From Alphaproteobacteria bacterium (GTDB lineage Bacteria; Pseudomonadota; Alphaproteobacteria; Bin95), in assembly GCA_964291285.2 (NCBI GenBank), contig OZ219788.1:576001-640000 (forward strand): 64,000 nt of DNA, in the 5' to 3' direction. The notes beneath the pieces are model-generated. The model did no database searches, was not told the DNA's origin, and saw only the letters and a list, made by a program, of their open reading frames with translations. Positions 39,243 to 44,090 of the stretch are shown here, one piece after another. The position numbers and the translations under genes are program-made. Every line of letters begins with the position of its first letter. The stretch's first letter is position 1.

Positions 39243-40139
39243 ATGAGGCGCGGCGCGCGCCGGCGGCTGCTGTTCGGGCTGCAGACCGTGCTGGGCCTGG
39301 CGCGGCGCGGGTTCTTCATTCCCCATGCGCGGGCGGACGGTGTCGCGCCGCCGGGGCCGATGGCATGGGTCGAGGCGCGCTTCGAGGCGGCCCTGCCGGC
39401 ATTCATGGCGGCGATGGACGACATGGACGGCCTGGCGCCGGCGCTCGCCGCCATAGGCGGGGCGGCGGCGCCGGAGCCGCGCTGGGACCAGGACTGGTTC
39501 CCCCGGCTCGACGCCGCCATGCTCTATGCGCTGGCGCGCCGGCGCCCGCCGCGCCGCGCCGTCGAGGTCGGCAGCGGCCATTCCACCCGCTTCCTGCTGC
39601 GCGCGCTCCGGGACGGCGGCGCAGACGCGGAGGTGACCGCGATCGATCCCCAACCCCGCGCCGCCCCTGCCGGGCCGGGCGGGCGCCTCAGGCTGTTGCG
39701 GCGCACGGTGCAGGAGGCGGGCCGGCAGCCGTTCGAGGCGCTGGAGGCGGGCGACTGGCTGGTGATCGATTCCAGCCATGTCGCCATGCCGGGCACGGAT
39801 GTGGACTTCCTGTTCGGGCATGTCCTGCCGGCGCTGCCGCCCGGCGTGCTGGTGCATGTCCACGACGTCTTCCTGCCGGACCCCTACCCGGAGGACTGGG
39901 CCTGGCGGGGCTATAACGAGCAGTTGGGGGCGGCGCTGCTGATCGCCGGGGGCTGGCGCCCGGTCTTCGCCAGCCGCTACATGGCGACGCGGCACCCGGA
40001 GCGCATCGCGCGCTCGGTCGTCGCCACCCTGCCCCTGCCCCCCGGCGCCCGCGACACCAGCCTCTGGCTCTGCCGGGAGGAGCGCGGCGCCGGTGCCGGG
40101 GCCCCCGGCGAAGGGCACAGGGCCGCAACGAATTCATGA
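39243..40139 (+). CDS. class I SAM-dependent methyltransferase (Methyltransf_24-like)
   Basis: EVGSGHST, IDP, IDSSH, HVHDVFLP, YNEQ. Confidence 0.87.
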   Translation: MRRGARRRLLFGLQTVLGLARRGFFIPHARADGVAPPGPMAWVEARFEAALPAFMAAMDDMDGLAPALAAIGGAAAPEPRWDQDWFPRLDAAMLYALARRRPPRRAVEVGSGHSTRFLLRALRDGGADAEVTAIDPQPRAAPAGPGGRLRLLRRTVQEAGRQPFEALEAGDWLVIDSSHVAMPGTDVDFLFGHVLPALPPGVLVHVHDVFLPDPYPEDWAWRGYNEQLGAALLIAGGWRPVFASRYMATRHPERIARSVVATLPLPPGARDTSLWLCREERGAGAGAPGEGHRAATNS

Positions 40140-40415
40140 AATCAAGGTAATGTTTCCCCTGTTCGGGTCCGGACCGGGAAAACCCGTGATATGATGGCTC
40201 CGGGGGAAGCGGAATCCGGAGCCGCTTCCCGCCCGCGCCGGCACGGTGCGGCCCGGTGCGGCACGGACCCGGTCCGGCAGACAGGCGAGGTGCGCCCCGC
40301 CTCCGCCCCGCGCGCGCCGCCGCGAGACGCGCACGGGCGGGCGCGCGCGCATGAGGGCAGAGAGGAGAAGATATGCAGGAACGGGCAGCAACATATGTCC
40401 TGCGGGCATGCAGAT

Positions 40416-40488
40416 CATGACATTCCATGACATATCGCAGAAGGTCGCGAGGGCCCCGCATGACAAAACATGACATTCCATGACATCC
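40416..40488 (+). repeat. five phased CATGACA heptamers (10-bp period)
   Basis: Copies start at 40416, 40426, 40459, 40469, 40479. Confidence 0.85.
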
Positions 40489-40632
40489 GGGTGGAGTGGG
40501 CCGGCCCCGCCGCCGCCCGCGCACGCCGGCGCGGGCGCGCGGGCGCGGGGGGGGCGCGCATTATGCGCGGGCGGGCGGCGCGCCTCCGGCAACGGGGGCG
40601 TCCGGGACCACGGACCGGCAAGGAGGCTGCGA

Positions 40633-41240
40633 TGCCCCGGCAGATGCCCGTCGCGCCGAGAGAGCCCCCACCCGGCCTCCCCCGCAAGCGGGGGAGGGGA
40701 AGACGGGAGCAGGCGGCGGGGGAGACGGAGAGGCAGGCGGGGGTGAAGCAGGCAGGCGGGTGGAGCGGCGGCGAGGAAATCCCCTCTCCCCGCGAGCGGG
40801 GAGAGGACGGGTGAGGGGGCCGCCGGCAGGCGGCGGGCGAAGCCCCGGGAGACGCCCGTCGCGCCGAGAGAGCCCCCACCCGGCCTGCCCGCCAAGCGGG
40901 GGAGGGGAAGACGGGAGCAGGCGGCGGGGGAGACGGAGAGGCAGGCGGGGGTGAAGCAGGCAGGCGGGTGGAGCGGCGGCGAGGAAATCCCCTCTCCCCG
41001 CTTGCGGGGAGAGGACGGGTGAGGGGGCCGCCGGCAGGCGGCGGGCGAAGCCCCGGGAGACGCCCGTCACGCCGAGAGAGCCCCCACCCGGCCTCCCCCG
41101 CAAGCGGGGGAGGGGAAGACAGGAGCAGGCGGCGGGGGAGACGGAGAGGCAGGCGGGGGTGAAGCAGGCAGGCGGGAGGGGAGTTGGAAATGCAGGCGGG
41201 GGAGGGGAAGACGGGAGCAGGCGGGTGGAGCGGCGGCGAG
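40633..41240. repeat. REP-doublet (BIME-like) tandem array, 208-bp period
   Basis: Anchor gcccgtcRcgccgagagagccccc at 40646, 40854, 41062; each full unit holds two inverted palindromic REPs. Confidence 0.9.
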
Positions 41241-41300
41241 GGAGCCGGAAAGGCAGGATGGGCGGGACAGGGGCGCCGGCTTCGCGCTACAACCCCGGCC

Positions 41301-41687
41301 ATGCCGGCCGACCCGATCCTGCGCGCCCGCGCCCGCCGCCTCCGCAGGGACCAGACCGACGCGGAACGCACGCTCTGGCAGAGGCTGCGCGGCAGGCGGC
41401 TGGGCGGCCTCAAATTCCGCCGCCAGCATGTCGTCGGGCCCTGGATCCTGGACTTCTACTGCCCCGAATGCCGGCTCGCCGTGGAGCTGGACGGCGGCCA
41501 GCACAACGAGGCGGAGAACAGGCGCCGGGACGAGGCGCGCACGGCCCTCCTGGAGGACCGGGGCGTGGCGGTGCTGCGCTATTCCAATCTGGAAGCGCTC
41601 AGGGAGACCGATGCCGTGCTCGAAGACATCGCCCGCCATGCAGCCGGCAGGCGGCCGGCCGCGTCCCCGGAGAAGAAGCGCCCGTGA
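41301..41687 (+). CDS. DUF559 (Vsr-like PD-(D/E)XK) endonuclease
   Basis: ARRLRRDQTDAERTLWQRLR..KFRRQH..ILDFYC..VELDGGQH..RDEAR..VLRYSN. Confidence 0.92.
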   Translation: MPADPILRARARRLRRDQTDAERTLWQRLRGRRLGGLKFRRQHVVGPWILDFYCPECRLAVELDGGQHNEAENRRRDEARTALLEDRGVAVLRYSNLEALRETDAVLEDIARHAAGRRPAASPEKKRP

Positions 41688-41965
41688 AGCCCCGGCAGAT
41701 GCCCGTCGCGCCGAGAGAGCCCCCACCCGGCCTGCCCGCCAAGCGGGGGAGGGGAAGACAGGAGCAGGCGGGTGGAGCGGCGGCGAGGAAATCCCCTCTC
41801 CCCGCTTGCGGGGAGAGGACGGGTGAGGGGGCCGCCGGCAGGCGGCGGGCGAAGCCCCGGGAGACGCCCGTCGCGCCGAGAGAGCCCCCGCCCGGCCTGC
41901 CCGCCGAGCGGGAGGGGAGTAAGAAACGCAGGCGAAGGAGGGGAAGACGGGAGCAGGCGGAGGAG
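41688..41965. repeat. REP-doublet array, right part (165-bp unit plus partial unit)
   Basis: Same anchor at 41701 and 41866. Confidence 0.9.
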
Positions 41966-41984
41966 GGGTTGAAACGGGGGCGCG

Positions 41985-44009
41985 TCAGCGCATGGCGGCG
42001 GCGATGTTGCCGCCGTCCACGGTGAGCACCGCGCCGGTGGTCCTGCGCGCGCGGGCGAGGTCGGTGAAGGCGCGGGCCACGTCCGCCGCCCGCACCTCGC
42101 GGCCGAGCAGGTTGCCGCGCATGTAGCCGGCCTCGCTGACGCCCCGCGCCTTCGCCCTGGCCGCCACCATGGCGCCGTCCAGCAGGCCGCTGCGGATGCG
42201 GTCGGCGTTGACGGCGTTGGACGCGATGCCGTCGCGCCCGTGGTCGACGGCATACTGGCGCATGAGGGCCAGGGTCGCGGCCTTGGCGACGCCGTAGGGG
42301 CCGAAGTCCGGGCCGGGATTGACCGCCTGCTTGGAGGCGTTGAAGAGCAGGCTGCCGCCCGTGCCCTGCGCCCGCATGATGCGCACCGCCGCCTGCGCGA
42401 CCCGCTGGTGGGCGAAGAAGTTGAGCTCGAAGCTCCGGCGCAGCGCCGCGTCCGCGACCTCGCCGATGCGCCCCTGCCAGGCCGCGCCGGCGTTCGAGAC
42501 CAGGATGTCGACGCCGCCATGGCGCCGGCAGACCTCGGCGAAGGCCGCCTCGACCGCCTCCGGGCGGGTGACGTCGCAGGCGATCGTGTCCGGGCCGGCC
42601 TCCAGGTCGAGGCCGACCGGCTCCGCCCCCTCGGCGCGGAACGCCGCCATTGTGGCCCGGCCGATGGCGCCCGCCGCCCCCGTCACCACCGCCACCTGCC
42701 CGGCGAGCGGCGGCGGCGCGGCCCGGCCGAGCTTCGCCTGCTCCAGCGGCCAGTATTCGATGTCGAACAGGTCCGCCTCGCCGATGCTGGCGAACCGCCC
42801 GATGCGCTCGGCGTCGGCGATGATGTCGACCGCGGCTTCGGCGAGGTCGGCGGCGATGGCCGCGGCCTTCGCGTCCCGGCCCGCGGCGAAGAGGCCCACG
42901 CCCGGGGCCAGCAGCACGCGCGGGGCGGGGTCGAGCGCCGTCAGGCCGCCGCCGGCGCGCGCATTGCCGCGCTCGAAATACGCCGTGTAGTCCGCCTCGA
43001 ACCTGCGGACCGCCGCCGCCGCCTCCCTCGCGAACGCCGCCGCCGCGCCCGCCCGCGCCGGCGGCAGCAGCACCGGCCATGACTTGACCCGGAGCGCATG
43101 GTCGGGCGTGACCGTGCCGGCGAGCCCGTAGCGGGCGACCTCCGCCCCGTCCACGAAGCGCCGGACATGCTCGCCGCCCCGGAAGGCGAGCAGGAAGCGC
43201 GCCGGCTCGCCGTCCGGCTCCGGCGCGGGCCGGGCGAGCAGGCCGCGCAGGACGGGCGCGACCTCCTCCGGCGCGGCCGGCCGGTCGGGCAGCCGGGCGC
43301 TCTGGAAGACCTTCGCCGGGGCGGCGGCCAGGCGGGCTTCCGCGAGGCTCGCGAGGCGGATCATGCGCTCATAGGATTCGCGCGCCGTCTCGCCGAAGGT
43401 GAAGACGCCGTGGTTCAGCAGGACCAGGCCCTCGCAGTCCGGCTGCGCCTCGAAGAGCTCGGCGGCTTTCCGCGCGAGCCGGAAGCCCGGCATGATGTAG
43501 GGCACGAGCGCGACCTTTTCGCCGAAGACCTCGCGGCAGAGCGCCGCCCCGTCCGGCTGGTCGGTCAGCGCCAGCACGGCGTTGGCGTGGGTGTGGTCGA
43601 TATAGCGGTGCGGCAGGAAGGCGTGCAGCAGGGTCTCGACCGAGGGCGCCGGCGCGGCGGGGTCGAGCAGGTTGGCGCGGTGGGCGGCCACCATGTCCCC
43701 GTCGGAGAGCGCGTCGCGCTGCCGGAGGCGCCGGAGCGGCTCCAGCCGGACCGCGGGCAGGCCGGGCGGCTCGATCCGCGCCATGTCCCAGCCCGAGCCC
43801 TTGACGCGGAGCACCTCCACCTCGTCGCCGGCGAGGTCGGTCATGCGGGTCTTGAGCGAGGTGTTGCCGCCGCCGTGCAGCACGAGGCGCGGCTCGCCGC
43901 CGAGGAGGCGCGTCGTATAGACCCGGAGCGCCAGGTCCCGGTCCGCGCCCTCCGCGCCGTAGCGGGCGACCGCCGCCTCCGCCTCCCGGTCGGACCAGAG
44001 ACTCTCCAT
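41985..44009 (-). CDS. bifunctional class II aldolase / short-chain dehydrogenase (RhaD-like)
   Basis: LVLHGGGNTS, PSVETLLH, DHTH, IEYWPLEQAKL; TGAAGAIG, NAG, YGVAK. Confidence 0.92.
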   Translation of the reverse strand: MESLWSDREAEAAVARYGAEGADRDLALRVYTTRLLGGEPRLVLHGGGNTSLKTRMTDLAGDEVEVLRVKGSGWDMARIEPPGLPAVRLEPLRRLRQRDALSDGDMVAAHRANLLDPAAPAPSVETLLHAFLPHRYIDHTHANAVLALTDQPDGAALCREVFGEKVALVPYIMPGFRLARKAAELFEAQPDCEGLVLLNHGVFTFGETARESYERMIRLASLAEARLAAAPAKVFQSARLPDRPAAPEEVAPVLRGLLARPAPEPDGEPARFLLAFRGGEHVRRFVDGAEVARYGLAGTVTPDHALRVKSWPVLLPPARAGAAAAFAREAAAAVRRFEADYTAYFERGNARAGGGLTALDPAPRVLLAPGVGLFAAGRDAKAAAIAADLAEAAVDIIADAERIGRFASIGEADLFDIEYWPLEQAKLGRAAPPPLAGQVAVVTGAAGAIGRATMAAFRAEGAEPVGLDLEAGPDTIACDVTRPEAVEAAFAEVCRRHGGVDILVSNAGAAWQGRIGEVADAALRRSFELNFFAHQRVAQAAVRIMRAQGTGGSLLFNASKQAVNPGPDFGPYGVAKAATLALMRQYAVDHGRDGIASNAVNADRIRSGLLDGAMVAARAKARGVSEAGYMRGNLLGREVRAADVARAFTDLARARRTTGAVLTVDGGNIAAAMR

Positions 44010-44090
44010 CAGCCGCCGCGCCCCCTTGCCCGCCGCCGTCGGGGCGGAGAGTAGCACGCCCGGGCCCGCAAGCTGCTAGTCTCGCGCCCC

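Follow-up and report, generated by a model that had tools for sequence, protein, structure and literature searches.

A DUF559 gene between inverted hairpin ends in an alphaproteobacterium is a member of a widespread composite element

The window analysed here, a 64,000-nt stretch (C4:576001-640000) of a five-contig alphaproteobacterial genome of 6.1 Mb and 68% G+C, carries at 40615-41965 an array of repeats on both sides of one DUF559 gene, between convergent neighbouring genes. A first-pass annotation had described five copies of a hairpin repeat, REP-A, and three inverted copies of a relative, REP-B, set in a 208- and 165-bp register around the gene, and this layout was recovered by repeat search and pattern scan. 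Three tandem 208-nt units fill 40615-41238, the second and third with 93% and 76% identity to the first, and the repeat search found the 67-nt REP-A family in five copies spaced by 208, 208, 639, and 165 nt; the pattern scan found REP-A at four sites, the fifth (~41884-41919) being too degenerate to pass 6 mismatches. The locus is a member of a widespread composite element, in which a DUF559 gene lies between two inverted hairpin ends—physical association, co-inheritance, insertion polymorphism, and the absence of a RAYT transposase are all established by the comparisons below.

Each REP-A consists of a tail (GCCCCCACCC), 2 nt, and a hairpin (CCTCCCCCGC-AA-GCGGGGGAGG), and REP-B, its inverted relative, of a hairpin (CCTCTCCCCGC-NN-GCGGGGAGAGG), 2 nt, and a tail (GGGTGAGGGGG). 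As single-stranded DNA, the sequence from REP-B through the linker to REP-A folds into one long hairpin (-60.2 kcal/mol vs -35.5 +/- 3.2 for 200 shuffles, z -7.6), and the unit bearing the open reading frame (ORF), folded as RNA, showed no structure above its shuffles (z +0.5). Within the window the DUF559 gene takes the place of the left part of the linker and is followed by the linker's right part and then by REP-A. Over its last ~45 nt the ORF is similar to the linker of ORF-less doublets (score 34 vs 20.5 +/- 3.2; 4/1000 shuffles reach 34), which fits an ORF-less form arising by internal deletion; the ORF-less doublets most likely arose from ORF-bearing units in that way. The REP-B upstream of the window's gene has probably decayed, and is intact in two orthologous loci (L014, L017).

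Genome-wide, the REP-B core occurs at 12 sites, 3 of them in the window array, and the REP-A core at ~7, making this a low-copy family and not a high-copy REP, a correction to the first description. A generic pattern, CCTCYCCC-N2-8-GGGRGAGG, has 23 sites in the source genome vs 0 for the same pattern read backwards, so the motif is no chance product of G+C content. The composite of REP-B, linker, and REP-A' recurs without an ORF at nine further places. The genome has a single stand-alone DUF559 gene, along with a DUF559-like C-terminus in a frame of 2139 codons, and a profile search for Y1_Tnp/RAYT (PF01797) gave 0 matches in it. Three ORF-less doublets lie in frame, at the same place in paralogous fibronectin-III-repeat proteins with frames of 1101, 1196, and 979 codons (L001 3880-4020, L002, and L003; C1:628.4 kb, C3:1590.4 kb, and C4:59.2 kb), where they are translated as ...PPPAGREGSGEGL...PLPASGERG.... 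Elsewhere in the genome the right part of the linker begins directly after the stop codon of a Methyltransf_17 gene, and likewise after that of a Slam paralogue (C1:657.3 kb).

The window gene's product matches PF04480 at 123.1 bits, vs a gathering cut-off of 20.6, and NCBIfam PRK09767—the family named after YcjD—at E 9e-28, under its equivalog cut-off. Catalytic D51, E62, D64, and H68 (D...E-x-D...H) are invariant in 16 sequences. Profile searches matched PDB entries 3HRL (E 3e-36) and 3R3P, the homing endonuclease I-Bth0305I (E 9e-5), and a predicted structure (pLDDT 83) had a fold matching 3HRL (TM-score 0.91), 3R3P (0.74), and 1VSR (~0.55) as well as the Vsr-like domains of AbaSI/PvuRts1I, leaving I-Bth0305I as the closest characterised fold relative; the PADLOC homing-endonuclease model gave a weak match (E 0.002). 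By family, residues, and predicted fold, the product is a putative Vsr-like PD-(D/E)XK nuclease. DUF559 orthologues within the genus are 82-92% identical, and the ratio of nonsynonymous to synonymous substitution rates (dN/dS) is 0.19-0.26 for the window gene against its orthologues, within a genus range of 0.12-0.34; the protein is under purifying selection.

The pairing of gene and hairpins extends across phyla. As hairpins we counted perfect pyrimidine/purine stems of at least 8 with loops of 2-8, lying no more than 200 bp from a DUF559 match. The cross-phylum set held one genome per species and comprised the best 80 of 557 confirmed relatives, chosen by protein similarity only—that is, the best-scoring relatives of an alphaproteobacterial-type profile, which span Pseudomonadota, Thermodesulfobacteriota, Myxococcota, Nitrospirota, Deinococcota, Chloroflexota, Planctomycetota, Bacteroidota, Actinomycetota, Saccharimonadota, and others. 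A hairpin accompanied DUF559 at 70/80 of these loci, on both sides at 47/80, with a density of 2.58 per kb near the gene vs 0.128 per kb farther out in those loci. Among 41 relatives of the source genome, 14/18 DUF559 loci had a hairpin within 200 bp (13/18 at a stem of at least 9), vs 3/30 loci of a control core family, Methyltransf_17, in the same genomes (Fisher 3e-6). The repeat enrichment around DUF559 genes that the first pass had expected to find across genomes is borne out by both sets.

Hairpin number also follows the gene from genome to genome. The distribution of DUF559 is patchy (15/41 relatives at E 1e-5 or better; 6/16 in the genus), and genomes with it contain a median of 24 hairpins (n=13) vs 1 in those without (n=28), differences for which Mann-Whitney tests gave p 2.4e-4 overall and p 0.011 within the genus, values that overstate the association because the genomes are related. 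Y1_Tnp occurs in 6 of the 41 genomes, all of them hairpin-poor (0-8 hairpins), and in none of the hairpin-rich relatives; as in the source genome, then, there is no RAYT elsewhere to explain the repeats, which had been one way for the first interpretation to fail.

A typical end measures 35-40 nt and is built of a pyrimidine arm, a loop, a purine arm and, after 2-5 nt, a purine-rich third block or tail, the three blocks being 9-10 nt each. At the left end the hairpin comes first and a GGGTGAGGG-like tail follows; the right end is mirrored, with a CCCTCACCC-like tail, a stop codon or 2-3 nt, and then the hairpin, and the stop codon of the gene itself often stands between third block and hairpin (CCCTCACCC-TAA-CCCTCTCCC...). 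When upstream and downstream flanks were aligned, the median local score was 50 in inverted and 30 in direct orientation, and 21 against another locus; inverted exceeded direct in 53/74 loci, and direct exceeded inverted in 19. Genome G040 has both forms of the element: six of its 35 hairpins flank its three DUF559 loci on both sides, all three of its hairpin pairs spaced 200-2000 bp contain DUF559, and seven pairs 87-100 bp apart are ORF-less doublets, whose left and right ends are identical to those of the DUF559 units and whose middles are unrelated and short. Among the predicted inversion targets of a published survey (PMC9881135), the entry "DUF559 domain-containing protein" is enriched 14-fold, as would suit genes that have inverted repeats on either side. 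At the ends of many loci (L037, L069, and L025, for example), where the arm is not mirror-symmetric, the third block copies the arm in neither direct nor inverted orientation; it is close to the arm's mirror image with T in place of A (AAAGGGGGG then AGGGGGGGTTT), a form compatible with a fold-back triplex of the purine motif or with an alternative hairpin.

Gene and ends are inherited together. On a tree of 75 DUF559 proteins the hairpin class changes 15 times; over 500 shuffles the count averaged 28 and never fell below 23. Two clades that each include several phyla have their own hairpin type, CCCCCCTTT in one (8 rows, SH-aLRT 92) and CCCCTTAA in the other (4 rows, 87). With so few changes of class, and clades that cross phyla, gene and ends travel together, in line with the test of co-variation between repeats and protein that the first pass had proposed. 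Within the genus, descent is mostly vertical, accompanied by losses. Copies of DUF559 in the same genome have diverged from one another, some copies are decaying (L023, L024), and ORF-less units form tandem arrays in the window and at two other loci (L016, L025).

Insertion polymorphism was evident at several sites. A second DUF559 lineage follows a fumarate-hydratase-like gene in three relatives (G005, G007, and G012), one copy being 5'-truncated, and the source genome provides the empty site, with 41 bp in place of a 644-bp insert; beside this site lies ~1 kb of the source genome (C1:34701-35730) that is absent at the matching place from the same three relatives. The comparison of filled and empty sites, which the first pass had put forward for the window's element, thus succeeded here and at hrpB-mrcB in E. 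coli, and not at the window locus, where no empty site was found among 14 same-genus genomes—homology extends no further than the stop codon of the aldolase/dehydrogenase gene, and different neighbours follow. Between ruvC and ruvA of G040 stands a DUF559 insertion complete with its ends. In G037, the halves of each of two HsdS genes (L010 2434-2912 and L011 2464-2942) are separated by an in-frame DUF559 unit bearing GGTGGGGGGA / TCCCCCCACC ends, and the frames of these type I restriction S subunits stay open (623 and 612 codons).

In E. coli K-12, the DUF559 gene ycjD has sapF and fabI as its neighbours; at its 3' end it passes into a decayed hairpin, and 200 bp downstream there is a unit of the form hairpin-TTA-GGGTGAGGGG. 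When up to 3 mismatches are allowed, the motif CCTCACCCTAACCCTCTCC occurs at 31 sites in K-12, many of them inverted doublets built as in G040. These repeats are the classical BoxC family, an identity that follows from the published member list, whose first entry is the right half of the hrpB-mrcB doublet (PMC2267715); the same paper gives BoxC as 56 bp in 32 copies. Half-sites number 31 in K-12, 29 in BL21(DE3), and 36 in SE11, all ycjD-positive, vs 8, 7, and 6 in the ycjD-negative B2 strains CFT073, UTI89, and 536, a contrast that amounts to one phylogenetic split and not to six independent points. According to another study, ycjD is present in phylogroups A, B1, and C, with the eef operon in its place elsewhere (PMC12817139). 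At hrpB-mrcB three allelic states of the doublet exist—complete, reduced to a single hairpin, and absent—and strain 07_3636 has a single hairpin where K-12 has the doublet, by a 64-bp collapse between the hairpins (L184 395-520; L186; L187). In separate counts, the hrpB-mrcB-doublet query was covered to at least 80% in 3,266/5,426 E. coli genomes and ycjD in 3,377/5,426. Between ycjD and fabI in K-12 (L132 5230-5440), ~70 nt of the ycjD 3' end are repeated in decayed form before the BoxC unit. The literature we searched, from which most subscription journals were outside scope, contained, by title and abstract among the matches listed, no publication linking DUF559/YcjD to REP or BoxC-type repeats, none on ycjD together with BoxC, none treating Vsr-like proteins along with mobile inverted repeats, and none on a BoxC partner gene; the REPIN/RAYT papers among the matches listed leave DUF559 unnamed in titles and abstracts.

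Known systems offer several comparisons with the window's element. The first pass had called it REPtron-like, and the resemblance holds for the inverted flanking repeats and the doublet hairpin: as in REPtrons, a usually single-copy nuclease gene lies between inverted hairpin repeats, repeat number tracks the presence of the gene, and inheritance in the genus is largely vertical with losses, and as in REPINs, the ORF-less inverted doublets fold into one long hairpin. The resemblance ends at the RAYT, at the foot of the hairpin, and at the copy number. The enzyme here is a Vsr-like PD-(D/E)XK nuclease by prediction, whereas RAYT is an HUH Y1 transposase (PF01797); REP hairpins have a conserved GTAG/CTAC at the foot, a tetranucleotide absent from REP-A and REP-B; and the ends here have three blocks and copies in the tens (23 hairpins in 6.1 Mb) rather than the hundreds. 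With no RAYT, by which the family is defined, the unit is not a REPtron family member, though its architecture is REPtron-like. With BoxC, the window repeats share a CCCTCACCC-like tail, 2-3 nt, and a pyrimidine/purine hairpin, occurrence as single units or inverted doublets in intergenic DNA, and the adjacency of one copy to a DUF559 gene, E. coli ycjD. They differ in having longer, GC-closed stems (CCTCTCCCCGC / CCTCCCCCGC), a 52-nt linker, and tandem units, and only short motifs are common to both (GGGTGAGGG, CTCTCCCC). Judged by architecture, the window repeats belong with BoxC and would not be a new family.

Other likenesses are partial. I-Bth0305I (3R3P) has the Vsr-like (EDxHD) catalytic fold and motif and is a selfish-element nuclease, residing in a phage group I intron and equipped with an added DNA-binding domain, whereas the DUF559 proteins considered here are free-standing, 110-130 aa long, and located between hairpin ends. 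As in miniature inverted-repeat transposable elements (MITEs), ORF-bearing and ORF-less forms share terminal inverted repeats, but no member of a known transposase family is present, and a target-site duplication was not seen. The in-frame insertions within genes, in the G037 HsdS genes and the fibronectin-III proteins of the source genome, are reminiscent of Rickettsia palindromic elements. Vsr and Caulobacter VsrA belong to the same superfamily; VsrA carries DUF559 and acts on DNA in vivo, and a cytosine-methylase mutant depends on it for its SOS response (PMC12907096). A difference from Vsr is that no C5 cytosine DNA methylase gene lies beside the window gene, which stands between a Methyltransf_24 gene and an aldolase/short-chain dehydrogenase fusion; Caulobacter VsrA is likewise unlinked to a cytosine methylase gene, and flanking repeats go unmentioned in the passages on it that were consulted (PMC12907096).

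What the DUF559 protein might do with its ends can be proposed at about even odds: it would, along the lines that the first pass had inferred, recognise and cut them, and would in this manner spread or maintain the ORF-less copies. In favour of this stand the cross-phylum association, inverted ends, ORF-less copies, hairpin counts, co-inheritance, purifying selection, and insertion polymorphism set out above, the kinship of fold with I-Bth0305I, and DNA damage in vivo by a DUF559 protein, Caulobacter VsrA, which drives SOS when a methylase is mutated (PMC12907096). The protein would bind the palindromic ends and nick or cut at or near them, and repair or copying of the break would spread or maintain the ORF-less doublets in trans. 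Such a scheme would parallel that of RAYT with REPINs, with a different chemistry since the enzyme is unrelated—hydrolytic cleavage followed by host repair in place of HUH strand transfer. Tentatively, and at somewhat less than even chances, we also suggest that BoxC-type repeats, from E. coli to the window, may be non-autonomous partners of YcjD/DUF559, constituting a second, phylum-spanning repeat-enzyme system alongside REPIN/RAYT, in which a Vsr-like hydrolytic nuclease would work on three-block hairpin ends and in-frame landing would be possible.

Several observations count against the proposal that the nuclease acts on the repeats. Co-variation and flanking are what linkage would produce, and co-variation does not of itself demonstrate a relation of enzyme and substrate. 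The window's own DUF559 gene lacks an intact upstream hairpin, and a perfect hairpin is absent at 10/80 and 4/18 DUF559 loci of the two sets. The comparisons among genomes are phylogenetically non-independent, the single split behind the E. coli contrast included; B2 E. coli without ycjD retain 6-8 BoxC half-sites, and three relatives are hairpin-rich with no DUF559 found (G002 with 67 hairpins in an assembly of 550 contigs, G029 with 18, and G003 with 14). In the source genome, doublets bracket an unrelated gene, the core Methyltransf_17 gene (E 5.6e-52; L006 3240-4125, C1:91.2-92.1 kb). Copy numbers are low (23 hairpins in the source genome) and the ORF-less copies have diverged in their middles, so any spread has been slow or is ancient; and at both comparisons of filled and empty sites (the G000/G007 site and E. 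coli hrpB-mrcB) a target-site duplication is absent.

Of the alternatives, the one that survives best, unlikely though with an appreciable chance of being right, is that BoxC-type doublets are moved or copied by host replication or recombination or by another enzyme, and that DUF559 is cargo, useful to the host in Vsr-type repair or in a restriction-like role. A dN/dS far under 1 fits a host-useful protein, VsrA in Caulobacter is tied functionally to a cytosine methylase and not to repeats (PMC12907096), and the hairpin-rich genomes without DUF559 and the doublets flanking an unrelated gene are both as this explanation would have them. However, no other gene accompanies the repeats, the three long-spaced pairs of G040 containing DUF559 only; a C5 DNA methylase gene is absent beside the window gene; and the pairing has been kept across many phyla despite differing hairpin sequences, which is hard to reconcile with arbitrary cargo.

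We consider it decidedly unlikely that the protein is instead a homing endonuclease, which would cut ORF-less doublets between their tails and convert them by repair from an ORF-bearing copy, the doublets themselves spreading by other means. The ORF-bearing copy would be immune because its half-sites lie ~400 bp apart, and they lie close together in ORF-less doublets. The nearest characterised structure is indeed that of I-Bth0305I, the weak PADLOC match is to a homing endonuclease, and both ends are common to ORF-less and ORF-bearing units. Against conversion of this kind, the doublets mostly stay ORF-less (at least 7 vs 3 in G040, 9 vs 1 in the source genome), DUF559 copies within a genome are diverged and show no recent conversions, and the linker in the source genome resembles the remnant of an ORF deletion rather than a virgin target.

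Very improbable, in our estimate, is a reading of the hairpins as expression signals—terminators, mRNA stabilisers, or translation signals of a mobile DUF559 cassette—with the ORF-less doublets as its inactive wreckage. In its favour are the stop codon built into the right end (CCCTCACCC-TAA-hairpin), the start of elements directly after the stop codons of several genes, the resemblance of the linker to the ORF 3' end, and the existence of decaying copies, among them the degraded ends of E. coli ycjD. Yet both ends are conserved in ORF-less copies whose middles are wholly different, a pattern that favours selection on the ends or their copying; tandem ORF-less arrays such as that in the window are no wreckage of single cassettes; and a promoter and terminator consensus scan of the locus returned 0 and 0 sites, with no T-run after the hairpins. 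That an ordinary intergenic repeat array came to lie beside a DUF559 gene by chance has next to no probability, being refuted at the family level by 70/80 and 14/18 DUF559 loci vs 3/30 in the control, even though 14/14 same-genus genomes examined are rearranged downstream of the aldolase/dehydrogenase gene and repeats also occur elsewhere in the source genome.

DUF559 is among the commonest uncharacterised small nuclease families, and BoxC, for decades a catalogued repeat of E. coli, has to our knowledge been given neither an origin nor a partner gene. Should DUF559 and BoxC form one system, both questions could be put to the test in E. coli K-12. Were the DUF559 protein to act on its ends as proposed, repeat-enzyme partnerships of the REPIN/RAYT type would have evolved more than once, with unrelated enzymes, and the partnership could account for many "PSPxGRG"-like open frames in GC-rich intergenic DNA and for in-frame insertions in surface and restriction-specificity genes. 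It could also account for the DUF559 genes among the predicted inversion targets of the survey cited above (PMC9881135).

The features of the array are collected in Table 1.

Table 1. Features of the repeat array and DUF559 gene, in window coordinates
Feature	Position	Strand	Basis
Linker right part (GATGCCCCGGCAGATGCCCGTCGCGCCGAGAGA), start of array	40631..40663	+	Pattern scan; repeat family D3
REP-A copy 1 (tail GCCCCCACCC, 2 nt, CCTCCCCCGC-AA-GCGGGGGAGG)	40664..40699	+	Repeat search, pattern scan
Purine-rich spacer from REP-A to REP-B (second at 40908-40988)	40700..40780	+	Sequence, pattern scan
REP-B copy 1 (CCTCTCCCCGC-GA-GCGGGGAGAGG, 2 nt, GGGTGAGGGGG)	40781..40819	+	Repeat search, pattern scan
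52-nt linker joining REP-B and REP-A into an ORF-less doublet (others at 41028-41079 and 41832-41883)	40820..40871	+	Pattern scan
REP-A copy 2	40872..40907	+	Pattern scan
REP-B copy 2	40989..41027	+	Pattern scan
REP-A copy 3	41080..41115	+	Pattern scan
Variant spacer with internal duplication (41172-41224)	41116..41241	+	Repeat family D2, pattern scan
Probable decayed REP-B end (GGATGGGCGGGACAGGGGCGCCGGC like GGACGGGTGAGGGGGCCGCCGGC)	41242..41279	+	Inference; intact hairpin and tail here in L014, L017
GCTACAAC, possible -10 element 7 nt 5' of the ATG (leaderless or near-leaderless mRNA)	41286..41293	+	Orthologue comparison
DUF559 gene, 128 aa from the ATG at 41301	41301..41687	+	Pfam PF04480, E 5.7e-36
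ORF 3' end and linker right part	41640..41718	+	Local alignment vs shuffles; repeat family D4
REP-A copy 4, right end of the DUF559-bearing unit	41719..41754	+	Pattern scan
REP-B copy 3	41793..41831	+	Pattern scan
REP-A copy 5, degenerate	41884..41919	+	Repeat search; family D3, 91%
Spacer remnant closing the array; the convergent gene's stop is 20 nt farther on	41920..41965	+	D2 copy 41908-41960

The possible -10 element keeps its distance from the start codon in 5 orthologues (GCTACAAC, GCTATAAC, CGTATAAC, GCCACAAC). The -10 consensus used for scoring was GCTANAWC, and this pattern alone is not significant, 43/100 shuffles reaching one match. Of the convergent neighbours, the Methyltransf_24 gene is on the + strand and ends at 40139, and the aldolase/short-chain dehydrogenase fusion is on the - strand at 41985-44057. 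An Rfam scan of 40100-42100 returned two chance matches only (Pab91, E 0.91). Contigs of four sequencing runs end at the repeats, and no structural variant of the array was seen in them.

A different repeat, CAAAACATGACATTCCATGACAT (ATGACAT heptads), is found in 3 copies at 40411-40486 and, allowing up to 2 mismatches, in 76 copies genome-wide; contig depth over 40434-40500 is ~40x the single-copy level, and it could serve as a regulator site or be a mobile repeat of another kind. In the relative G012, the DUF559 array stands directly after the orthologous Slam (SlipAM) gene (L016 3814-3968; window 39059-39213), whereas in the window the Methyltransf_24 gene and ~500 bp of other repeats lie between the Slam gene and the array.

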